Source: Gammaproteobacteria bacterium
GTDB taxonomy: Bacteria > Pseudomonadota > Gammaproteobacteria > JAJRRL01
Direction of reading: 5' to 3'
NCBI GenBank assembly: GCA_024279495.1
Contig: JAJRRL010000040.1
Coordinates: 74,256 to 138,255 of the forward strand
DNA: 64,000 nucleotides
Part shown: positions 42,248-53,863 of the stretch, in pieces
Layout: every line of letters begins with the position of its first letter
How positions within the stretch are numbered: the stretch's first letter is position 1
Position numbers and translations under genes: made by a program
Notes under the pieces: model-generated
What the model was told of the DNA's origin: nothing
Database searches by the model: none
Seen by the model: the letters and a program-made list of their open reading frames with translations, nothing else

Positions 42248-42571
42248 TTACTGATTGATAGACGCTTTCTCGATGATCTTTTTAAGTTCGCCTGATTCAA
42301 AGAGTTCGGTGACAATATCGCATCCGCCTACAAACTCACCTTGAATGTAAAGTTGAGGAATTGTCGGCCAATTGGTAAATGCTTTGATACCCTGGCGAAG
42401 GTCATCGTTTTCTAAGACATTGTGTGCAGTGAAGTTGGCCTTGCATTCTTTTAGGATATGAATCAGTTGAGATGAAAAGCCACATTGAGGAAAGTGCTCG
42501 GTACCTTTCATGTAAAGAACGATAGGTGTACTAGTGATTTGTTCTTGAATGGTGTTTTGAATGTCGCTCAT
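42248..42571 (-). CDS. grxD: monothiol glutaredoxin (Grx4/GrxD type)
   Basis: 107 aa with CGFS active site (PQCGFSSQ). Confidence 0.9.
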   Translation of the reverse strand: MSDIQNTIQEQITSTPIVLYMKGTEHFPQCGFSSQLIHILKECKANFTAHNVLENDDLRQGIKAFTNWPTIPQLYIQGEFVGGCDIVTELFESGELKKIIEKASINQ

Positions 42572-42807
42572 GAGTTATCTCCAATAGGTTCGTCTGGTGT
42601 AAGTGTTTGAATTGACAGGGCATGAATCGCTTCTTGCATTAAATTACCAAGGGCTGCATACACGCGACGATGCCTTTTGATTGTGTTTTGATTCGAAAAA
42701 GTAGGGCAAATAACAGTCACGCTTAAGCGACATCCTTCGCCATCAACGCTAATTGTAGCGCCAGGAAAAGCTTGAGTTAATAGTTCTTGAATAGTCTCAG
42801 TACTCAC
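42568..42807 (-). CDS. bolA: BolA-family protein
   Basis: 79 aa BolA/IbaG fold (HRRVYAAL...IHALS); genetically paired with grxD. Confidence 0.75.
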   Translation of the reverse strand: MSTETIQELLTQAFPGATISVDGEGCRLSVTVICPTFSNQNTIKRHRRVYAALGNLMQEAIHALSIQTLTPDEPIGDNS

Positions 42808-43168: not shown

Positions 43169-43492
43169 ATGACATTTATCGTAGGTGAGCAGTGCATACG
43201 CTGTAAATACACAGACTGCGTGGAAGTGTGTCCAGTCGATTGCTTTCATGAAGGCCCGAATATGTTGGTCATTAATCCTGACGAATGCATCGATTGCAAT
43301 TTATGCGTGCCAGAGTGCCCTGTCGAGGCGATTTATGCCGAAGAAGATTTACCAGAAGAGCAGCAAGAGTTTTTGGAAATTAATGCTCGTTTATCACAGC
43401 AATGGCCAGTGATCGCAGCCATTAAACCTGCGCCTGAAGATGCAGATGATTGGAAGGGCGTTGAGAATAAGTTAGAGCATCTTAAAGAGTAG
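43169..43492 (+). CDS. fdxA: 7Fe ferredoxin (FdxA type, one 3Fe-4S and one 4Fe-4S cluster)
   Basis: 107 aa; Cys pattern [14 protein letters not shown] ... [12 protein letters not shown]. Confidence 0.9.
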
Positions 43493-43696: not shown

Positions 43697-45034
43697 TCAA
43701 TATTCAGGCCTAACATGTCGCTCCATATCCTTAAGAAGGTGCGATAACTTCTGCCCTGCTTTTTTATGTTGGCCTAGAAAAATAGAACTTTCTTTTTGGC
43801 TGAAATGATGTGATTTCTTGGCGCAATAAGTAGTTAAGACGATTGATATGGCAGCTACAATCAAGCAGGCAACGCCAGCAAAAATAAGAGTGTTTGTGTC
43901 GATGGGTGTGGCGCTGCTTGAAAGAATGCTTGATATAATGGCAGTCATTAAGCTAGCGCCAGCGGCAGCAGATATGCCGGCGCCAAATCCATAGCCAATG
44001 GCTTTTTTGAGAGACCTAGGTTTCTGTCTCAATATTTTTCTAGAAGGAACAGCATTAAGGCCATTGAGAACCTCGGGGTAGTTAATGTCTTCAATTTGAG
44101 TTCTGAATTGTTCTTCTAATTTTGATTCTGAGATGGAGGGAAGCATTTTTTTAATATGATCATGGTATCGTATGTTGGTGATCAGTTTTGCGATCTCCTT
44201 AATAGAGAGTTTAGAGATATTCCTCAGCGATAAAGCAGCTTTTTCGTGGGTGAGTAATTGAATCAAGCAGGCAATAGGAGGCTCTTCTTCGGTAAATAGT
44301 TTAGCATGACTGTTTGAGAGCTCTAGGCTTGTTGTACGAAGAGAGAGGAAGTAGAGAAAAGAGTTATTCTTTATGTCTTTTAGGTGGCTAGCAAAGAGTC
44401 GCAGTATAAGAGGTGTGCTCGCATTGCATAGCGTTTTGAGCTGTGCTTCAGGGAGAGATGAGAGGATGTTAATGATCGATTCTCTAAAATCGATATCATC
44501 AACGGTATACGGCATGAGCTCTGCCATTTTCTCTTCCCCAAAATGTTTTTCAAGATAGCTTATTTGGGTTTCTTTAGAGTATTCTTTTTTCTTACTATTG
44601 ATGGTTTTAATGGACCCTCTTACTTTTATCTCATTACTTTGTGCTCGCCGCCTTCCGGCTATTGTCTCGGATAAGCGGTCTATGATAGTTAAAAAATGAG
44701 TCAAGGTGGTGAGAGAGTCGTCGTCTCTAATGATCCTTAACTCTAGAGGCTTAAGCTCGGTTAAGTCCTCTAAAAGCGCTTGTATATACTCTTCATCGTC
44801 TTCAAATTCTCTTTCTATCGTCATGATGAGGGCTATTTTTTCTTCGCCTAAGTGTTGTAGCAAGTAATCAAGCTTGCCGGGGCTCTCTGCTTTTCCTTCG
44901 AGAGGGCCCGGCATTCCTTGCCTGAAAAGGCAAAGGATAACTGCGGATAGCGATTCATTTCCCTCTAAGGCCTTCTGGATGCCGGGGGGTAGGCTGTTTA
45001 CTGCTATTCTTTTGGGGGGATCTAAATCAGGCAC
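43697..45034 (-). CDS. ORFan with C-terminal bilobed hydrophobic hairpin
   Basis: 445 aa; soluble helical N-terminal region; C-terminal AIGYGFGAGISAAAGASLMTAIISSILSS...LIFAGVACLIVAAISIVLTTYCAKK; no known family. Confidence 0.6.
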   Translation of the reverse strand: MPDLDPPKRIAVNSLPPGIQKALEGNESLSAVILCLFRQGMPGPLEGKAESPGKLDYLLQHLGEEKIALIMTIEREFEDDEEYIQALLEDLTELKPLELRIIRDDDSLTTLTHFLTIIDRLSETIAGRRRAQSNEIKVRGSIKTINSKKKEYSKETQISYLEKHFGEEKMAELMPYTVDDIDFRESIINILSSLPEAQLKTLCNASTPLILRLFASHLKDIKNNSFLYFLSLRTTSLELSNSHAKLFTEEEPPIACLIQLLTHEKAALSLRNISKLSIKEIAKLITNIRYHDHIKKMLPSISESKLEEQFRTQIEDINYPEVLNGLNAVPSRKILRQKPRSLKKAIGYGFGAGISAAAGASLMTAIISSILSSSATPIDTNTLIFAGVACLIVAAISIVLTTYCAKKSHHFSQKESSIFLGQHKKAGQKLSHLLKDMERHVRPEY

Positions 45035-45231: not shown

Positions 45232-47769
45232 GTGCCGAAAAGAAAAAGGTTTGATCTTCGTCATCAATTACTCATAGATACTGAGAACCTGCATTTGCAG
45301 GTAGAGCGTTTGCGTGCCTTTTTAAAAAAACAGCAGTTAAATGAAGAAAATGAACCTGCAGCTTCATTAAATCAAGATGAGCGCCGTCTATTGCAATTAA
45401 ATGAGAGAATTCTTACTTTTATAGACGAGCAGCTAAGAAAATCAGAGAAGACCTTGAATCACTTGCAAGAAAAAGGTTTTGATCTAACACCAATGTCAAA
45501 GGCCTTAGCTTTCATAAGTAATTGCATGGAATCCTTGGTTCGCTTTATAACTCAGTGGCGAGTCACTGCTAATAGTGACAATGGCTTTTTGAATCAATTT
45601 CAGAGTTCTGTTGGTAATCATTTAGAAGAAGATGGATTAGCAGAATTAAGTTACCTCTTAGCTTTTGCATCGCATGCAGGGAATATGAATTTGTCACAAC
45701 CAATTAGTATTCAATTGTCGATGCTTGAAACCATGGAGATGGTGTATCAGCCACTTCCTAATCATATTCAGTTAATGGTTGCCTCTCAAGATTGGGACAC
45801 GAACACAAACCCTTTTAGTATGTTAAAAGTAGCTCATGATGTCATGGCTTTAATGGCGGGTTCAACCCTATTACGAGGAGCTGACTCTCCTAATTTTGTG
45901 TTAGCGCCTCATTGTAAATCGACAGTAGGGCGTGGCCCCATGATGTGTCACGCTGTTATGTTTGCAATGATGTTGGATCCTACTTTTGAGAAGTACCGCT
46001 CGGTATTTTATCAGAAACTCGCTTTTTTATTAGGTCCAAAACCAATTAATAGACAAAGGTATATGGCAGCGATTGCTGATTCAGCTTCCCAAATACCTAA
46101 TAATAATTCAGAAAAAGAGAATTATGTGTTGGCCTTTCCTAGCGGTGCGGCCAAGGACACTGATTTGATTCAGGACTTACTGTCGCTTGCCGATTTATTA
46201 GCTGAGCGAGTGCCAACGCCAATGGCTTATCGTGTTCAAGAAAAACGAGCAAAAGGACCTTTTTTACGAACAAAGCAAGTGCTAGCAACGCGCTATGGTC
46301 ACTTGAGAAACGCTCCTAAAGGGGCTCAGAATAAATACTCTTTTGCTACCTATCGTTTAGCAGAGTTAAGGGAGAGCCTGAGCAATGATCAATTAACACA
46401 TCAAGCTATTTCTGATTACCTCACCTCAAAGCGAAGAATGGGTTATTTTAAAGGAGGTAGAGAAGGGAAGTTGATGCTACTTAAAATGCTCGATGTCTTT
46501 TTTAGAGAAAATGACTCGTCACTGATTCACCGAGGCATGACTTTTAACGACACTGAGCTTACTCACGCTTTAAACCAGTTGCTTTCAATTGCGTTGAATT
46601 ACTCAAGTGATGCGTTTCTTCAAGATTCTACGCTTACTACCACGGGTTGGTATTCGAAAAGACGAAAAGACTATGAAGAGCAGTTAAGTCAGAATCATGG
46701 TACGCCGGGCTCTTCGATGAATCGTCCTGTACGCCGAGTGCGTCGTATGCAGGGTCTTAATTCGGATGATGATGCTCGCTCAGGGCGACAAGGTGTGGAA
46801 CCCGATTATCAAACAAGAGAGCTGGCTAATACTGATTTGGCAGACATGACGTTGCAAGAAGAAGATAAGTTTAAGCAGTGGAAAGAGGCTCTTAAACAGC
46901 AATTGCCGAGCCTTAAAGATGCGTCTTCTTTAATTAAACATTTAGTAAAAGAGACGAAGCGAGACATGCCTTTAAAAGAACTTCAAAGGCATATCAAGCG
47001 TTATTTAAATTTTGCTATGAATGCTTTGGACAGGAAAGAGAGAAGCCTGGATGAAAAAGAAAAGATACCGAAGCAAGAAGAATACTTGGGTAGGGGCGCT
47101 GTCCGTCGTGAGCACATGAACCACATGAGTAAAGTGCTAGCTATGTGGTTAAGACAAATGGCTGCAGGCGAATGCAGCTTTCCGGATTTAAGTGATGAAG
47201 CATTGAATGAGCATCTGATGATGCTTCCGTCTCGCTCTAAGCGACTTTTCTCGTCACGTAAAACCTCTAAAGCAGTTGCCAAGCTGCCAGAGTCTATTTT
47301 GAGTGCTATTAAAGATTTACTGTCTGAGAGGAATTCTAATCAGAATGTGGAGAGACCTCCTATTAGGTTTACTTTTCGAGATCAGCGTCAAGCAAAAGAG
47401 TTGCCAAATATGAATAGCCTCAATACAGCCGTGGGCGTTCGTTCTTTAGCTACCCACATGCATGATAAGCAGCACACACGTATCGAGCTGGGTCCACTTA
47501 AGTTGGAGCTGCTTTCTCATAAGGACCTTTACGAATACCGCGATATTTCGGCATTTAAACGTGATGAATCGGCGGTGCTTGCGGCCAATCATGCGCTTAA
47601 TCTTCGTTGGCAATCAGGCAAGCTTCCTGAAAAGTTTGATTTTCATCAGGTGGTCAGCTTAGGTCATTTGGGTTTTCTTAAAGAAGCTCAGTATTTCCAC
47701 GAGCTTTCAAGAAGTATCCCAGAAGAAAATCCAGTAGCCAGCAATCAGCAGTCGGCTCCTACCCTTTAA
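45232..47769 (+). CDS. 845-aa ORFan (basic N-terminus MPKRKRF, large helical protein, no recognisable domain)
   Basis: long uninterrupted ORF with plausible promoter TAATTAATGCTATAAT at 45174-45194; starts with GTG. Confidence 0.6.
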   Translation: MPKRKRFDLRHQLLIDTENLHLQVERLRAFLKKQQLNEENEPAASLNQDERRLLQLNERILTFIDEQLRKSEKTLNHLQEKGFDLTPMSKALAFISNCMESLVRFITQWRVTANSDNGFLNQFQSSVGNHLEEDGLAELSYLLAFASHAGNMNLSQPISIQLSMLETMEMVYQPLPNHIQLMVASQDWDTNTNPFSMLKVAHDVMALMAGSTLLRGADSPNFVLAPHCKSTVGRGPMMCHAVMFAMMLDPTFEKYRSVFYQKLAFLLGPKPINRQRYMAAIADSASQIPNNNSEKENYVLAFPSGAAKDTDLIQDLLSLADLLAERVPTPMAYRVQEKRAKGPFLRTKQVLATRYGHLRNAPKGAQNKYSFATYRLAELRESLSNDQLTHQAISDYLTSKRRMGYFKGGREGKLMLLKMLDVFFRENDSSLIHRGMTFNDTELTHALNQLLSIALNYSSDAFLQDSTLTTTGWYSKRRKDYEEQLSQNHGTPGSSMNRPVRRVRRMQGLNSDDDARSGRQGVEPDYQTRELANTDLADMTLQEEDKFKQWKEALKQQLPSLKDASSLIKHLVKETKRDMPLKELQRHIKRYLNFAMNALDRKERSLDEKEKIPKQEEYLGRGAVRREHMNHMSKVLAMWLRQMAAGECSFPDLSDEALNEHLMMLPSRSKRLFSSRKTSKAVAKLPESILSAIKDLLSERNSNQNVERPPIRFTFRDQRQAKELPNMNSLNTAVGVRSLATHMHDKQHTRIELGPLKLELLSHKDLYEYRDISAFKRDESAVLAANHALNLRWQSGKLPEKFDFHQVVSLGHLGFLKEAQYFHELSRSIPEENPVASNQQSAPTL

Positions 47770-47778
47770 GAGGGCTGC

Positions 47779-47967
47779 TTAAAAAGTCCAAAGATCTTCT
47801 TTCTCATCATTGCCAAGGTTGGGGTTGTCTCGCTTTTTAAAAATAGCTTGATACTTGTCGATTTCACGTTGCTGAGAAGTAGAGGGCTCGTGTTCACTAT
47901 CGAATTCCTTTAGGGCGATGTCGATATCGCTGGTGAAGTCGCGTTTGATGGGTTTGATTAAAGACAT
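47779..47967 (-). CDS. small acidic hypothetical protein (62 aa)
   Basis: ATG preceded by GGAGACC; highly charged sequence; convergent with the 845-aa gene. Confidence 0.3.
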   Translation of the reverse strand: MSLIKPIKRDFTSDIDIALKEFDSEHEPSTSQQREIDKYQAIFKKRDNPNLGNDEKEDLWTF

Positions 47968-48088
47968 GTGGTCTCCAAGGTGTGGTGTTTTGAGTATTGT
48001 CGGTGCGTCTTCTCCTTAAGTCAATACAAGTTACTTGCTTTGAAAAATTGCTTTGCTGGGTTCGGAGGCTAGTAAGCGATTGAAATAT

Positions 48089-51000
48089 ATGGTTAAATTT
48101 AAGCTTGCTGAGTTCTTGAGCGCAAGCTATTATGAAGTCTTATCAAAGCGGGATATGCTTGTGTCTGATGCCACCTATACCATTGCCGGAATACCTCATA
48201 GCGCCATACAAAGCACAGAGGGTTTGCGTGCCTTAGATGAGGCTTTTAGAGAACACTTAAAGGGCAATGATAGTGCGCTGGATGCACTAGATGAGCTCCA
48301 GGTAGGCCAGGATATTTTGCGTGACCGCCATTCACATCTCATTATGCAATTGGGGCCTAAGCTAGAGGCCTTTTTGAGCCTAGCTATGGGTTATGAGAAG
48401 CAGATGCAGCCTTATCGTGAGTCGCAAGCACGTTATGCGACCATCCAACGCTTTAAGCGCGATTATTTGTTTCGGCGTATTAAGCCAAGACTCACTCGTC
48501 TTCCTTCCGGCGATTTTAAGGCTTTATCTGACCCACTGTGGGAAGCTGCTGGCTGCACGGAGTTAACTGACTGGGAATATGCTTTATCGTCTTGGGGTCT
48601 TCAGGTATTAGAATCAAAGGATTCGGCTTCATTGGCTCTTCTCGAAGCGTGGTGTGCGAGTGCTTGCTTAACGGATGCAGGGAAGGCTTGGATAGAAGAG
48701 AGTCTTTTGTTTTCTTGGCCAAAGCGTTTGAATCCAAATCAATTGCTGTCAGATTTTTCTGAGTATCGCTCGCGAGAGGGGTTTGATTTACAAGATTCAG
48801 GATTAAGTGAAGAACAGCAACACGATCATGCGCATTATTGTTTGGATTGTCATAGCAAGTCAGGTGATTTTTGTTCTATTGGTTTTCCAGTTAAAAAAGG
48901 TGATGTCTCTCAGGGTTATCGAGAGCATGCGAGCGGAGAGTTGATGTTGGGTTGTCCGCTAGAAGAGCATGTGGGTGAAATGCATGAGCTTTTTGCTGGC
49001 GGCCATCCGATTGCTGCTTTGGCTGCGGCCATGGTTAATAACCCCTTAATTGCTTTAACAGGTCATCGCGTTTGCAATGATTGCATGAAATCTTGCGTTT
49101 ACCAAAAACAAACACCGGTCAATACACCTGGGGTTGAAAGTGGTTTATTGCAATGGGCGCTTGCTCTGCCTTGGGGTGTGGAATTGGTTGCTCTTCTGAT
49201 GCGTTGGAACCCGCTTCGTTATTGGCAGCCAATTGAAAAATCAAAACAAGGGCGTAGTGTTGCCGTGATGGGTACAGGCCCTGCGGGCATAGCGATGATG
49301 CACCATCTCTTAATGGAAGGCTGTGACGTGGTTGCTTTTGATGGGGCTAAGCTAAGCGCTGTTCCAAATGAATGGTGTGATCAGCCGATTAAAGAATACG
49401 CATCAATTTGTAGACCTCTGTCGGAAAGACCTGCTCGAGGTTTTGGTGGTGTGAGTGAATACGGCATTACGGTTCGTTGGGATAAAAACTTACTGACTTT
49501 GCTGCATGTTTTGTTTCAGCGTCATTCTAGAGCTACCTTAATAGGTTCTGTTCGTTTTGGAGGTGCGCTCACGGTTGATTCATTTTGGCCTTTAGGGTTT
49601 GATCATCTCTGTTTGGCTTTGGGCGCAGGCCTTCCAAAAGAATTGCGTATTCCAAATAGTTTAGCAATAGGCATGCGGCAAGCTAGTGATTTTCTCATGA
49701 GTTTGCAGTTAAACGCTGCGGGGCACCTGAAGTCATTGTGTGCTTTTCAAATGCGTTTGCCAGCCTTAGTGATTGGTGGTGGCCTAACAGCAGTGGATGC
49801 TGCGTCAGAAGCCATGGCTTATTATCTTCAATTAATCGAGACGGTATCGATTCGTTACTATGCTTTATGCAAGACCTTGAGTGAGTTAAAAGTGAGAGGT
49901 ATGTTATCAGTAGATGATCTTCTTATTCTCGATGAATGGCTTTTGCATGCCAATGCATGGCATCAAGAAAAAGAAAGAGCAAACTCGCAAAGCAAGCAGG
50001 CTGATTCAGTTGCATTTATCAAACGTTTGGGCGGCGTTAGCATTGTGTATCGTCGCTCCATGAAAGAATCTCCGGCTTATAAACGTAATCATGAAGAGCT
50101 TGATTTGTGTTTAGAATCGGGAGTCTCTTATTTAGAGTCTTTGCAGCCTCACTCTGTGGTATGTGATGAATTGGGGCATGTGTCTGCCTTGTCTTGCTTG
50201 CCGGTTAGTGCCGATGAAGAAGGGCATCTAGTTCCATCAGGAGATCCTGTTGAGCTTCCTGCACGCTGTATTTTAACTGCAACAGGTGCAAAGCCAAATG
50301 TTGCTTATGAGTTTGAATATCGAGGCACGTTTCAAAAACATCAGGGTCATTATCAGCCTTATGGATGGAATGAAGAAGCGAATGCTTGGCAGGAAGATCG
50401 TTCGGAAGGCCATTTCAAGCAGGCAAGCATTGGCATGCTAACAAGTTATAACTCTTCTGGGCATCGTGTGAGCTTGCTTGGTGATTCGCATTGGCGGTAT
50501 CAGGGGACAGTTGTTCAAGCCATTGCGTCTGCTAGGCGTGCATTGCCTCAGGTGATGCGGGCAATGCATCACATTCCCAAGCAGACTGGTTTTGATAGAC
50601 AGGCCTTGCTCAAAAGTTTTGACGTTCGAGTGCTAAGTAATCAAAAAGTAACACAGTCGATGCATCTATTAACGCTTTCTTGCTCGCAAATTGCGAGTAG
50701 GCATGCGGCAGGTCAGTTTTATCGTTTAATACCATCCTCTGATTCTTTTCAGTCTGATAACAAAGCATTATTGGGTTCTCGTATGGGTTCTGATGGGTGT
50801 TTGTCGTTTGTGTTATCTGGCGATTCACCAAGCACGCGTTTGCTTAAAAAACTAAAATCAGGAGATTCTTGTGATCTCATGGGCCCCACAGGGGCTTGGG
50901 CTCATCAGCCTTCTAATCCTGAGCATGTCTTGGTGATTGGTGGTGACTTGGCTTTCGCTTTCTTGCGTTCTGTTTCGCCAGAATGGCAGAAGCAAGGGCA

Positions 51001-51472
51001 TCGTATTACGTGGCTATCAACGTTATCTGAAAGAGAGCTTTTGGAGTTGTCTGATTGCCTTCCTAGCTTAGAAGCTAAGTACATCACTTCCGCCGATCTC
51101 GTTTTACCAGGCGATTGCTATCCTAAGCAGTTTTCTGCTGTGTATGCGATAGGCGATCCAATATTGGTTCGCTCTGTTCGTTTGGCACGTAAAAACAACT
51201 GGAACCATGTGTTTTCAGAGGCTTGTCGGTGGGTTGGCGCTGTTTATGGCCCTATGCAGTGTCAGCTGAAAGGTGTGTGCGCCCAATGCCTGCAATGGCA
51301 GATCGATCCGAGCACAGGAGAGAGAACCAAAGCCGTGTATGCGTGTTCTTGGCAGCATCAACCCATGGATGTGATTGATCTAGATCATCTTTCTGAGCGC
51401 GCTACGCAATCACAAGCGATTGATTCATTAAACGCCCTTTGGTTTGAAGAGTGTGTTGATAATGCGCTATAA
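48089..51472 (+). CDS. large multidomain flavin/Fe-S oxidoreductase: unknown N-terminal domain + GltD-like (glutamate-synthase small-subunit family) module + C-terminal PyrK/FNR-like module
   Basis: Cys clusters CLDCHSKSGDFC and CNDCMKSCVYQK; dinucleotide folds VAVMGTGPAGIAMMHHL and ALVIGGGLTAVDAASEA; C-terminal GPTG, VLVIGGDLAFA and CQLKGVCAQC...YAC (2Fe-2S-like C-x5-C-x2-C...C). ORF track starts at TTG 48053; first ATG is 48089. Confidence 0.6.
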   Translation: MVKFKLAEFLSASYYEVLSKRDMLVSDATYTIAGIPHSAIQSTEGLRALDEAFREHLKGNDSALDALDELQVGQDILRDRHSHLIMQLGPKLEAFLSLAMGYEKQMQPYRESQARYATIQRFKRDYLFRRIKPRLTRLPSGDFKALSDPLWEAAGCTELTDWEYALSSWGLQVLESKDSASLALLEAWCASACLTDAGKAWIEESLLFSWPKRLNPNQLLSDFSEYRSREGFDLQDSGLSEEQQHDHAHYCLDCHSKSGDFCSIGFPVKKGDVSQGYREHASGELMLGCPLEEHVGEMHELFAGGHPIAALAAAMVNNPLIALTGHRVCNDCMKSCVYQKQTPVNTPGVESGLLQWALALPWGVELVALLMRWNPLRYWQPIEKSKQGRSVAVMGTGPAGIAMMHHLLMEGCDVVAFDGAKLSAVPNEWCDQPIKEYASICRPLSERPARGFGGVSEYGITVRWDKNLLTLLHVLFQRHSRATLIGSVRFGGALTVDSFWPLGFDHLCLALGAGLPKELRIPNSLAIGMRQASDFLMSLQLNAAGHLKSLCAFQMRLPALVIGGGLTAVDAASEAMAYYLQLIETVSIRYYALCKTLSELKVRGMLSVDDLLILDEWLLHANAWHQEKERANSQSKQADSVAFIKRLGGVSIVYRRSMKESPAYKRNHEELDLCLESGVSYLESLQPHSVVCDELGHVSALSCLPVSADEEGHLVPSGDPVELPARCILTATGAKPNVAYEFEYRGTFQKHQGHYQPYGWNEEANAWQEDRSEGHFKQASIGMLTSYNSSGHRVSLLGDSHWRYQGTVVQAIASARRALPQVMRAMHHIPKQTGFDRQALLKSFDVRVLSNQKVTQSMHLLTLSCSQIASRHAAGQFYRLIPSSDSFQSDNKALLGSRMGSDGCLSFVLSGDSPSTRLLKKLKSGDSCDLMGPTGAWAHQPSNPEHVLVIGGDLAFAFLRSVSPEWQKQGHRITWLSTLSERELLELSDCLPSLEAKYITSADLVLPGDCYPKQFSAVYAIGDPILVRSVRLARKNNWNHVFSEACRWVGAVYGPMQCQLKGVCAQCLQWQIDPSTGERTKAVYACSWQHQPMDVIDLDHLSERATQSQAIDSLNALWFEECVDNAL

Positions 51473-51510
51473 TTGTTTTTTCTAAACATGTTTTAAAAAG
51501 GAGTTTTCTC

Positions 51511-51828
51511 ATGTTTAAACAAATCTCAGTCAAAGAATTAAATTCTTTGCTTCCGCATAGAGATCTCATTTTGGCTGATGTCAGAGATCGAGAAAGTTTT
51601 ATCTGTTCGCATGTGCCCGGGGCAGAGCATCTGTCGATGGATCGCCTTCAGCAATTTTGTGCTCAAGCAAAGCCATCACAAAGCGTTGTTGTGTATTGCT
51701 ATCACGGTGTGACTAGCCAGTCTGTCGCTCAATTTTTAGTGGAACAAGGTTTTGATAGCGTGTACAGTCTGGAAGGTGGTTTTGAGGCATGGTATGCCGT
51801 TAGCAATAAGGAGCAGCAAAGCGGATGA
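51511..51828 (+). CDS. single-domain rhodanese (sulfurtransferase, GlpE-like)
   Basis: 105 aa with active-site loop VVYCYHGVTSQ; SD AAGGAG. Confidence 0.8.
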   Translation: MFKQISVKELNSLLPHRDLILADVRDRESFICSHVPGAEHLSMDRLQQFCAQAKPSQSVVVYCYHGVTSQSVAQFLVEQGFDSVYSLEGGFEAWYAVSNKEQQSG

Positions 51829-52646
51829 AAGAAAGGCTATTGATTAGCAAAATGCGATCCGAGGCAAAAGACCCGGTACAATATACATTACAAACTGAGC
51901 AGGGCGACTTGCGGGTTAATGATTGGATTGGCCAAACCATTACAATTGCCGATACAGGGCGTCGCTTTTGCACTCAGTGTGCCAGACCATCAAAGAAGCT
52001 GTTCCAACAAGGGTATTGTTATCCTTGTTATCGAAAACTCCAAGAATGTAACTTATGCGTGATTCATCCAGAGCGTTGCCGTGTGATGGAAGGGTGTTGT
52101 CCTGAAAACGACTGGGCTCACAGGCATTGCCATGCGTCCCAAATTCTGTATCTGTCTTATACCTCTGGCTTGAAGGTGGGGATCACCCAAGAAAAAAATT
52201 GCCCTTCTCGTTGGATCGATCAAGGCGCTGTTGCTGCATGCGCTGTGATGACAGCCTCGAATCGTTTTTTAGTGGGGCAGGTTGAGGTAGCTTTAAAAGC
52301 ATTTTTAGCCGATAAAACACAATGGCGAACCATGCTGCGAGAATCCCCCGAGCCTCCTGATTTGGTGGCTGCTTGGGAGCAGGTGTTAATGCAAGCAGAG
52401 CTTCCTTTAATGGATTTAATAGAGACCTATGGGGATGAAGACATTGGGATTATCGATAACCCTATGATGCAAACCTTTCGTTACCCGCTAGAAAAACACC
52501 CTGAGAAAATTATGTCTCACTCCTTAGATAAAACCCCAGAAGTATCTGGCGTTTTGCAGGGAATCAAAGGGCAATACCTTATTTTAGATACAGGCGTGAT
52601 GAACATCCGAAAATTCACCGGCTACGAAGTGGATATTACGGTTTAG
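51825..52646 (+). CDS. Cys-rich hypothetical protein (zinc-ribbon-like N-terminal region; possibly DUF2797 family)
   Basis: 273 aa; CTQCARPSKK...CYPCYRKLQECNLCVIHPERCRVMEGCC; ATGA overlap with the rhodanese gene. Confidence 0.5.
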   Translation: MKERLLISKMRSEAKDPVQYTLQTEQGDLRVNDWIGQTITIADTGRRFCTQCARPSKKLFQQGYCYPCYRKLQECNLCVIHPERCRVMEGCCPENDWAHRHCHASQILYLSYTSGLKVGITQEKNCPSRWIDQGAVAACAVMTASNRFLVGQVEVALKAFLADKTQWRTMLRESPEPPDLVAAWEQVLMQAELPLMDLIETYGDEDIGIIDNPMMQTFRYPLEKHPEKIMSHSLDKTPEVSGVLQGIKGQYLILDTGVMNIRKFTGYEVDITV

Positions 52647-52663
52647 TTGGTTTTGCAGGGTGA

Positions 52664-52695
52664 GTTTAGCCCTGCAGATTATCTTTAAAAAGAAA
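52664..52695 (+). terminator. possible terminator hairpin between the convergent Cys-rich gene and zapE
   Basis: TGCAGGG-TGAGTTTAG-CCCTGCA with a weak T-rich tail (GATTATCTTT). Confidence 0.3.
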
Positions 52696-52737: not shown

Positions 52738-53811
52738 TTATAACGGGGTAACGCCGCCTTTAGCCGTCATTTCAATGATGCGAGATTGTGTTCGCTTGAA
52801 GTTTTCTTTGAGTTTGCCTTTTGGGTAAAGGTCGTCGACGTCTTTTTCTGCGCTGATAAATAATTCGACATCTTGATCATAAAGCACATCAATTAACTTA
52901 ATAAAGCGAGCGACCATGTTGGTGTCATTTGTTTGAAAAACAGGAACGCCGCTAATAATCACGTGTTTAAAGCGCTCTGCAATGCTTAGGTAATCGCGCG
53001 AGCATCGAGGAGGAGAGCAGAGCTGTTCGCAGCTAGCCCACAGAGTTGATTTGGAATAACGGATGTTTGGCACTTCTCTTCCCACGATGCTTAAAGGGTC
53101 ATGGTAGGTGTGACCTTCAGAAATAGTGTTGTAGCAATGAGAAAGCTCTTGAGCGGTTTGATTGTGAATAGGAGTGAGATAGCGAATTAAACTGTCTTTT
53201 TTAAGACGCCGATAATCGCGGTCAATGGTCACTTCAATGACATCCATGTTTTTTTCGATGAGCTCGATGCTTGGTAAGAATTTCTTTCGTTGAAAGCCAT
53301 CTTTGTAGAGATTAGAAGGGGCTGTGTTTGAGGAGGTGATAATGCAGACGCCAGATGCCATGAGATTCTCTAGTAAGCCAGCTAAAACCATTGCATCAGC
53401 AATGTCGTTGATAACAAACTCATCTAAGAAAAGCAGTTGAGCTTCTCGTGCAATCGCTTCTGAGAGTTGCTTTATGGGGTTCTTTTTTCCTTGGAGGCGG
53501 AAAAGCGCTTGATGAACGTCGTTCATAAAAGCGTGAAAATGAATTTTCTTTTTTTTGATCGGCAAGCTTTGATATAAAAAGTTGAGTAAGTGTGTTTTTC
53601 CCAAGCCGACTTCTCCCCAAATGTAGAGGCCAGGTATTGTCTGTCTTGCTTTTTTACTGAGCCGAAGCCACCAATGTGATTGGGCATTCATTTTTTCAGT
53701 GAATAGCGCATGTTTTTTTTGAAGCGCATTGATTAGCTTTGCTTGTTCAGGATCAGCAAGGAGTTCGCCACTTTTAATGGCATTTTGGTATAAGATTTTT
53801 GGATCAGTCAT
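52738..53811 (-). CDS. zapE: AFG1-family ATPase (cell-division protein ZapE)
   Basis: 357 aa; Walker A GEVGLGKTHLLN, Walker B LLFLDEF; ZapE-like N-terminus. Confidence 0.75.
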   Translation of the reverse strand: MTDPKILYQNAIKSGELLADPEQAKLINALQKKHALFTEKMNAQSHWWLRLSKKARQTIPGLYIWGEVGLGKTHLLNFLYQSLPIKKKKIHFHAFMNDVHQALFRLQGKKNPIKQLSEAIAREAQLLFLDEFVINDIADAMVLAGLLENLMASGVCIITSSNTAPSNLYKDGFQRKKFLPSIELIEKNMDVIEVTIDRDYRRLKKDSLIRYLTPIHNQTAQELSHCYNTISEGHTYHDPLSIVGREVPNIRYSKSTLWASCEQLCSPPRCSRDYLSIAERFKHVIISGVPVFQTNDTNMVARFIKLIDVLYDQDVELFISAEKDVDDLYPKGKLKENFKRTQSRIIEMTAKGGVTPL

Positions 53812-53863
53812 GGTTTTCTTTTATGTGTGTTCAAGGTCATTATAGGCAATTACATCTTCTTTT

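Follow-up and report, generated by a model that had tools for sequence, protein, structure and literature searches.

A fused GltD-like and PyrK-like flavoprotein of the RP005/PRK06567-like family, a candidate single-chain NAD(P)H:ferredoxin oxidoreductase

The window analysed here is a stretch of 64,000 nucleotides (nt) of contig JAJRRL010000040.1 (assembly GCA_024279495.1) from a gammaproteobacterium. It harbours on the plus strand a large open reading frame (ORF; 48053..51472, 1139 amino acids counted from a TTG codon) for a single-chain iron-sulfur (Fe-S) flavoprotein of the RP005/PRK06567-like family. The large gene is followed by the genes of a rhodanese (51511..51828, plus strand) and of a DUF2797 protein (51825..52646, plus strand), and all three ORFs, which had been proposed in an earlier note made from the sequence alone, were found in the ORF list at the same positions. 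On balance we favour the reading that the large protein is a single-chain NAD(P)H:ferredoxin oxidoreductase, which works like the Nfn and Xfn enzymes and feeds ferredoxin-dependent enzymes. It is a further member of a catalogued family without a described function. The three-gene arrangement is read as a gene order inherited in one clade and as no demonstrable functional unit.

Modules and predicted redox centres of the large protein

The earlier note had divided the large protein into three parts, and every motif it quoted is present. Fold and profile searches support the proposed build, in which an N-domain is followed by a core of the GltD/NfnB-like type and a tail of the PyrK/NfnA-like type. 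An AlphaFold2 model based on 75 homologues (predicted local distance difference test score, pLDDT, 88.4; predicted template modelling score, pTM, 0.90) was compared with the PDB using Foldseek. The top hits for the core were the P. furiosus proteins 5jca_L and 5jfc_L (NfnI-L) and 5vj7_A (Xfn) and T. maritima 4ylf_B (NfnB), with template modelling (TM) scores of 0.79-0.82 and a best E value of 2.5e-20 (5jca_L, TM 0.81), and for the tail the small subunits 5jca_S (NfnI-S) and 4ylf_A (NfnA), with TM scores of 0.73-0.75. The structural comparison that the note had proposed thus shows that the middle and C-terminal folds match Nfn-type flavin/Fe-S subunits. At the sequence level, the best match of the family profile among PDB sequences was Xfn (5vj7, 6.9e-19), together with 5jca_L (1.6e-18) and 5jca_S (8.5e-12). 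The profile also matches both NfnAB subunits and PyrK (4ylf_A and 1ep3_B for the tail). With matches to both subunits of NfnI and of NfnAB, the view that a GltD-like and a PyrK-like part correspond to the subunit pair of NfnAB/SudAB is well founded. Pfam detected Pyr_redox_2 (6e-7) and, weakly, Fer4_20; weaker NCBIfam matches at residues 852-1040 are to PyrK-type and sulfide/dihydroorotate-dehydrogenase-like models (PRK06222/PRK00054).

The N-terminal domain (approximately residues 35-215; 48155..48700, plus strand) is all-helical in the AlphaFold2 model, with a pLDDT of about 90, and corresponds to Pfam RP005_N according to the PF27156 assignment on an identical protein. The note had recognised no motif in this region, and no match was found among solved structures (best Foldseek E value 2.4). 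A conserved linker, R241-x-G-F-x-L-x-D248, comes after this domain.

The Fe-S domain (48833..49144, plus strand) contains the motifs C263-x2-C266-x7-C274...C301 and C341-x2-C344-x3-C348. Residue conservation was read from alignments of 18 and 75 homologues, and in both of them these seven cysteines, four cysteines of the C-terminal module and both glycine motifs are invariant; E362 is also invariant. HMMER aligns C301, C341, C344, C348 and E362 to Cys/Glu positions of NfnI-L. Based on the seven invariant cysteines and E362, this domain is predicted to hold two [4Fe-4S] clusters, as in GltD and NfnB.

The adrenodoxin-reductase-like flavin adenine dinucleotide (FAD) and NAD(P)H domains (49235..50587, plus strand) were delimited by Pyr_redox_2, PDB alignments and Foldseek, and contain GTGPAGIA at residues 407-414, GGGLTAVDA at 575-583 and VYRR at 665-668. 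Between GGGLT and VYRR lies a helical insertion of 69 residues (589-657, nt 49817-50023), which is absent from NfnI-L and at which the AlphaFold2 model has helices (544-611). According to the HMMER alignment, the YRR motif is kept as in NADP(H)-bound NfnI-L. Because of this conservation, the pyridine-nucleotide site of the GltD/NfnB-like module is probably specific for NADPH, which would be the likely donor.

The PyrK/NfnA-like module (50615..51472, plus strand) was assigned by NCBIfam, PDB profile matches, Foldseek and motifs. It comprises a ferredoxin-NADP reductase (FNR)-like barrel with GQFYRL (887-892), the motif MGPTG (943-947) and a Rossmann-like subdomain with VIGGDLAFA (961-969); MGPTG and G-x-S-S are retained. 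It also contains the Cys4 [2Fe-2S] motif C1070-x5-C1076-x2-C1079...C1098 (nt 51260-51346). Since its four cysteines are invariant, the motif suggests a [2Fe-2S] site ligated by Cys4 as in PyrK; when the C-terminal 106 residues alone were compared with the PDB, no alignment was obtained. The nucleotide loop of this module is degenerate in the window protein (IGGDLAFA), in contrast to the canonical GGGLGNA of the alpha-type subfamily. The Rossmann-like subdomain is well conserved in the alpha-type and highly variable in length and sequence in the gamma/Coxiella-type, and the two subfamilies may differ in the use of a second pyridine nucleotide. Altogether, the motifs point to two [4Fe-4S] clusters, an FAD, a pyridine-nucleotide site and a Cys4 [2Fe-2S] cluster as the cofactors of the large protein.

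The TTG codon is probably not the true start of the large gene. An identical protein at NCBI (P0001) has 1127 amino acids and begins at M13 (nt 48089), and the alignment with homologues begins at approximately M35 (nt 48155). Therefore, translation probably starts downstream, at the ATG at 48155 (M35) or the ATG at 48089 (M13).

The RP005/PRK06567-like family and its gene neighbourhood

The earlier note did not recognise the whole as a described enzyme. However, the family of the large protein is already catalogued (Pfam PF27156, RP005_N; NCBIfam PRK06567, E value 5.8e-129). The precomputed PF27156 assignment covers the 100% identical P0001 and the top 120 homologues except P0008 and P0011; the coverage among these 120 is 79-99%, and at least 91% in all but two. 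The score against PRK06567 is 431.7 bits and does not reach the equivalog cut-off of 1072. Judged by this score, the window protein is a divergent relative, and no equivalog, of the rickettsial PRK06567 model.

The closest relatives of the large protein are metagenomic proteins with 60-62% identity, and a 1171-amino-acid 'FAD-dependent oxidoreductase' of C. burnetii (P0046) is 39% identical over 96% of the length. A pattern scan with one genome per species detected the family in at least 598 GTDB species, and the best 80 loci belong to Gamma-, Alpha- (including Rickettsiales), Beta- and Zetaproteobacteria, Acidithiobacillus, Acidobacteriota, Myxococcota, Planctomycetota and Nitrospirota. The profile of the N-domain matched 1585 cluster representatives at 50% identity. 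Among the best 150 of these matches the domain is always N-terminal and full-length members have 1050-1250 amino acids, the shorter ones looking like fragments. In the window protein and in every homologue examined, the modules are encoded by a single ORF without a stop between them. 'Chimeric GltD-UbiB proteins' were noted in nearly every Rickettsiales genome (PMC3641634), the Ehrlichia copy (E. chaffeensis ECH_0778) was listed for an organism that lacks glutamate synthase (GOGAT) (PMC4251998), and we found the family retained in a Coxiella-like endosymbiont (L025). The family is large, persists in important intracellular bacteria whose genomes are reduced (Rickettsia, Ehrlichia, Coxiella), and is predicted to carry the full set of Nfn-type redox centres. 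Literature searches on CBU_0586, RP005, lpg0582, DUF2797 and alternative CysJ partners revealed no functional study. Two annotations were rejected. The large protein is not considered the small subunit of glutamate synthase, because no GltB-like gene is present near the window gene or among the recurrent neighbours at 165 loci, and '2-polyprenylphenol hydroxylase' is a legacy COG0543 name.

Genes neighbouring the large gene were counted at 165 loci in all, and FdxA was regarded as nearby if located within 7 kb. In the window, FdxA is a 7Fe ferredoxin of the Azotobacter FdI type (43169..43492, plus strand; Fer4 and DUF3470). A homologue is located within 7 kb of the large gene at 17 of the 165 loci and is adjacent (at most 155 bp away) at eight of them, six times upstream and co-directional, once downstream and co-directional, and once convergent. 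The large proteins of these eight loci are 59-91% identical (seven compared; the ORF of L089 is mis-called), and several lineages therefore take part in this adjacency. The second association is with sulfate assimilation. An operon including CysI lies nearby at 7 of the 165 loci, in alphaproteobacterial or Rickettsiales-like metagenome-assembled genomes (MAGs; L032, L036, L043, L045, L059, L086 and L115), and the large gene is the last one in this operon or stands beside it. In L059, for example, the order is CysI, sirohaem synthase, CysH, CysD, CysNC and the large gene. The available flanks of these seven loci showed no gene of the CysJ type. Taken together, the associations with FdxA and CysI suggest that the large protein would supply low-potential electrons, and this fits the Nfn/Xfn-like scaffold. 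A search for neighbours conserved across phyla gave none, and even the commonest Pfam families account for at most 3 of the 131 downstream genes. Neighbours encoding a short-chain dehydrogenase/reductase, a branched-chain amino acid-binding protein, CtaA and ATE were not accepted as functional links, as they seem to reflect synteny among soil genomes that are closely related.

In the window, FdxA is located 4.6 kb upstream of the large gene. This large distance is due to the insertion of two ORFs, one of 445 amino acids (43697-45034, minus strand) and one of 845 amino acids (45232-47769, plus strand). Neither has a significant Pfam match; the only hit, DUF6709 on the 445-amino-acid ORF, has an E value of 0.0037 and is below the cut-off. 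FdxA belongs to a conserved FdxA-BolA-Grx block, which is continued by BolA (42568-42807) and a monothiol glutaredoxin with the CGFS motif (42248-42571), both on the minus strand. The block is found upstream of the large gene also in C. burnetii, L081, L170 and L171, and in L169 FdxA and the glutaredoxin are present without a called BolA. Between FdxA and the large gene, the window contains on the minus strand a gene for an acidic protein of 62 amino acids (47779..47967; PF28076, CBU_0585/lpg0581), which is divergent from the large gene and marks the Coxiella-like block. The slot between FdxA and this PF28076 gene is occupied by two ankyrin-repeat proteins in L171 and by a 1490-amino-acid ORF in L081, and appears to be a hot spot in which lineage-specific genes, possibly effector-like, are found. 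Proteins of this family show the motif (Y/F)(I/V)S-x-(I/L)D...F(D/N)..H..S..Q..EI.K(Y/H)..IF, often with (L/I)W at the C-terminus, and an earlier list of Legionella/Coxiella homologous effector candidates includes the PF28076 protein (PMC3486869).

The rhodanese and DUF2797 genes

The two downstream proteins were correctly recognised in the earlier note. The rhodanese (105 amino acids) is a single-domain protein of the GlpE type, which passes the equivalog cut-off of NF001195 (109.2 bits versus 102), matches Pfam Rhodanese (3e-18), and has the active-site loop CYHG with the catalytic C63. The Cys-rich third protein (273 amino acids) is a full-length DUF2797 protein (PF10977, 4e-79, 266 bits, profile positions 1-227 of 227). 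Its two four-cysteine sites, C49/52/65/68 and C75/78/85/92, as well as H99/C102, are invariant (alignment A6), and a profile search of the PDB revealed no relative. DUF2797 is described as a Zn ribbon that is universal in Flavobacteria, where it is found in another genomic context (PMC9425974), and was a chemoproteomic hit in A. baumannii (PMC12458113).

According to the note, the three genes form a dedicated unit. This was not borne out, since the rhodanese and DUF2797 genes accompany the large gene only in the Coxiella-like clade and are separable even there. At 80 diverse genomic loci, DUF2797 is near the large gene at only three and the rhodanese at only one; neither was found at 80 further metagenomic loci of the alpha-type, and approximately 150 loci outside the Coxiella-like clade carry neither gene. 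In the clade itself, the 5' part of the gene order is FdxA - (BolA) - Grx4 - [variable insert] - PF28076 gene (minus strand), and the 3' part is large gene - rhodanese - (NadA - protein of about 120 amino acids) - DUF2797 - (CBU_0592). The PF28076 gene adjoins the large gene in the window and in L002, L005, L006, L015, L025, L083, L084/85, L169, L170 and L171; in L081/82 the 1490-amino-acid ORF lies between them, and L166 is truncated on the upstream side. At the 13 loci with this marker, DUF2797 is found within 5 kb downstream in 11 and the rhodanese in 8.

Several loci show how the arrangement can be broken. An insertion sequence (IS) element splits the large gene from the rhodanese gene in Paracoxiella L166, and two opposite-strand genes lie between them in L170. 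The rhodanese is absent from L081, L005 and L025, and DUF2797 is apart from the large gene in L168 (a Coxiellaceae MAG) and L167 (a metagenomic contig). In L084/L085 (C. burnetii), L166, L169 and L171, NadA and an unannotated protein of about 120-130 amino acids are encoded between the rhodanese and DUF2797, often by genes that overlap or are closely spaced; neither is present in the window. NadA is quinolinate synthase, a [4Fe-4S] enzyme. The small protein is paired with DUF2797 also away from the large gene (L168). Outer genes are syntenic as well, namely HemN-like, YkuD, inositol phosphatase and Ldh genes at some Coxiella-like loci. Downstream in the window, genes for ZapE (an AFG1-like ATPase) and for a 520-amino-acid Methyltransf_28 protein with C-terminal tetratricopeptide repeats (52738-55426, minus strand) are convergent to the DUF2797 gene, and this pair also follows DUF2797 in L081. 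Since the unit is breakable and absent elsewhere, its outer genes are also syntenic, and DUF2797 occurs in other contexts, we read the gene order as one passed down within a single clade. For the rhodanese and DUF2797 genes, the best reading is a separable unit beside the large gene, with which it is syntenic only in the Coxiella-like clade.

The spacer between the large gene and the rhodanese gene is 38 bp long, an AAAGGAG ribosome-binding site precedes the rhodanese gene, and the rhodanese stop overlaps the DUF2797 start in ATGA, an overlap already given in the earlier note. A sigma-70-like match in 10 of 12 positions at 51444-51473, ahead of the rhodanese gene, might be a separate promoter of the rhodanese-DUF2797 pair. 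Directly 3' of the DUF2797 stop, a terminator-like hairpin with a 10-bp stem (52652..52678, plus strand) is a plausible end of the transcription unit, for which its position alone speaks. The promoter and terminator scans of the region yielded as many sites as were found in shuffled controls. A perfect 10-bp palindrome, AAACATGTTT (51485-51494), is located in the 38-bp spacer and overlaps an imperfect, longer one (51478-51499); the 10-bp palindrome may serve as an operator or be without function. Rfam, a repeat search and PHROGs gave nothing relevant. Over the whole window (1-64000) the GC skew is above zero in all 2-kb bins (0.05-0.21) at a GC content of 40-47%, and the window appears to lie on one replichore with strong strand bias.

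Proposed function and comparison with known enzymes

In the reaction which we favour, NAD(P)H, likely NADPH, would reduce the central FAD, and the electrons would then pass singly along the Fe-S clusters to a small ferredoxin, for which the 7Fe FdxA is the probable candidate. The ORFs, the folds of the domains, the conserved ligands, the spread of the family and the gene surroundings were observed; from them we infer the cofactor content, the donor, the acceptor and the direction of electron flow. For the window protein, a simple, non-bifurcating reaction like that of Xfn is somewhat more likely than bifurcation, because the NAD loop is degenerate and the flavin motif is lost in its PyrK-like module; the reaction of the alpha-type might differ. 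A housekeeping role in electron supply would fit the retention of the family in nearly all Rickettsiales (PMC3641634) and in the Coxiella-like endosymbiont.

Several points weigh against this reading. At about 85% of the loci there is no ferredoxin or other informative neighbour, and the large gene is almost a loner. The first cluster motif is spaced unusually (C-x2-C-x7-C-x26-C). Further, the flavin motif GERIPLT of NfnI-S aligns to tEAlAll, and since R, P and T are lost, the second FAD may be missing or bound otherwise. The N-domain or the 69-residue insertion could dock a partner other than ferredoxin. Finally, no biochemical study of any family member was found in the literature.

Three other explanations were weighed against the favoured one. 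The large protein might be a fused NfnBA with true flavin-based bifurcation, in which NADPH would reduce FAD and the electrons would be split between NAD+ and a low-potential ferredoxin, one passing through the [2Fe-2S] cluster and the second FAD to NAD+ and the other through the two [4Fe-4S] clusters to ferredoxin. All redox-centre-bearing modules of NfnAB are indeed united in one chain and folded like both subunits, the alpha-type keeps the canonical loop in the PyrK-like module, and the proposed partner FdxA is a 7Fe ferredoxin; Azotobacter FdI-type 7Fe ferredoxins are low-potential. Nevertheless, we consider bifurcation unlikely: the loop of the window subfamily is degenerate, R-x-P-x-T of the NfnA-type flavin motif is lost, the four invariant cysteines of the [2Fe-2S] motif suggest a PyrK-like site and not the Asp(Cys)3 described for NfnA, Xfn shows that the scaffold may be non-bifurcating, and the hosts are mainly aerobes. 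Clearly improbable, in our opinion, is a dedicated reductase of a specific terminal enzyme docked via the N-domain, with sirohaem sulfite reductase as the candidate and the large protein as a substitute for CysJ. There is precedent for such a role, as other sulfite reductases take electrons via GltD-like (DsrL) and PyrK-like (AsrB) modules, and the large gene ends or adjoins cysI operons in whose available flanks no CysJ-type gene was seen. However, such operons were found at just 7 of the 165 loci, all of the alpha-type, and there is no cys gene among the annotated genes of the window (35.6-57.2 kb) or at the Coxiella-like loci. Moreover, Rickettsiales are not known to assimilate sulfate. Yet the family is retained in this order (PMC3641634).

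The model put forward in the earlier note, according to which the large protein, the rhodanese and DUF2797 constitute one redox/sulfur-trafficking, persulfide-handling unit, is the least probable of the explanations, and we regard it as very doubtful. The tight spacing with the 38-bp gap and the ATGA overlap, the single terminator-like hairpin after the third gene, the recurrence of the order in Coxiella-like genomes with large proteins only about 40% identical, and the Fe-S theme of the surroundings (FdxA, BolA, Grx4, NadA) speak for it. They are opposed by the absence of the arrangement from approximately 150 loci of other lineages, its disruption in L166 and L170, the loci lacking the rhodanese or having DUF2797 apart, the universal presence of DUF2797 in Flavobacteria, where its genomic surroundings differ (PMC9425974), the synteny of the flanking genes, which points to descent, and the promoter-like site before the rhodanese gene.

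The adjacency to FdxA and cysI leads us back to the oxidoreductase reading and to the concrete hypothesis that the large protein provides Rickettsiales, Coxiellaceae and many aerobes with reduced ferredoxin. If confirmed, this would supply a part that models of Fe-S and isoprenoid metabolism lack and could offer a pathogen-specific redox target. It is tempting to speculate, as a long shot, that the RP005-type proteins are oxygen-tolerant, single-chain bifurcating enzymes, which use NADPH with NAD+ as the co-acceptor and charge FdxA, the N-domain docking the ferredoxin or another partner. If so, they would account for the missing reduction of ferredoxin in Rickettsiales, Coxiellaceae and many aerobic bacteria, and in some Alphaproteobacteria they would provide the electrons with which sulfite is reduced.

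Among the known enzymes, Nfn (NfnI/NfnAB) is matched in its large and small subunits by the GltD-like and PyrK-like modules, by profile and by fold. The seven cysteines and the glutamate for two [4Fe-4S] clusters and the YRR of the NADPH site are common to both. In contrast to Nfn, which consists of two subunits encoded by adjacent genes, the window protein has fused modules in the order B then A, and it carries in addition the helical N-domain of about 180 residues and the 69-residue insertion in the NADPH domain. The spacing of the first cluster differs, the NfnA flavin motif is not kept, and the four cysteines of the [2Fe-2S] motif suggest a ligation other than the Asp(Cys)3 of the high-potential cluster in NfnA (PMC8097209). 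The hosts of the family are mostly aerobic or intracellular bacteria. NfnII/Xfn of P. furiosus (5vj7), the best profile match, shares the two-module scaffold, and has two subunits and no N-domain. One scaffold serves bifurcation in NfnI and simple NADPH:ferredoxin chemistry in NfnII/Xfn (PMC8097209). The NADH site in the small subunit of Xfn is blocked by an inserted loop, while in the window protein the nucleotide-loop motif itself is degenerate.

The Fe-S domain and the adrenodoxin-reductase-like FAD/NADPH domains are shared with GltD and the N-terminal half of dihydropyrimidine dehydrogenase, whereas GltB or a pyrimidine-reducing partner is missing from the window protein as a domain and as a gene. 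Further, the RP005-type family persists in Ehrlichia, which has no GOGAT (PMC4251998). The rhodanese resembles E. coli GlpE in passing the equivalog cut-off and in the CYHG loop, and its context is unlike that of E. coli glpEGR. The closest likeness in overall architecture, including RP005_N, is to the chimeric GltD-UbiB proteins of Rickettsiales (R. prowazekii RP005, ECH_0778) and to P0046 of C. burnetii.

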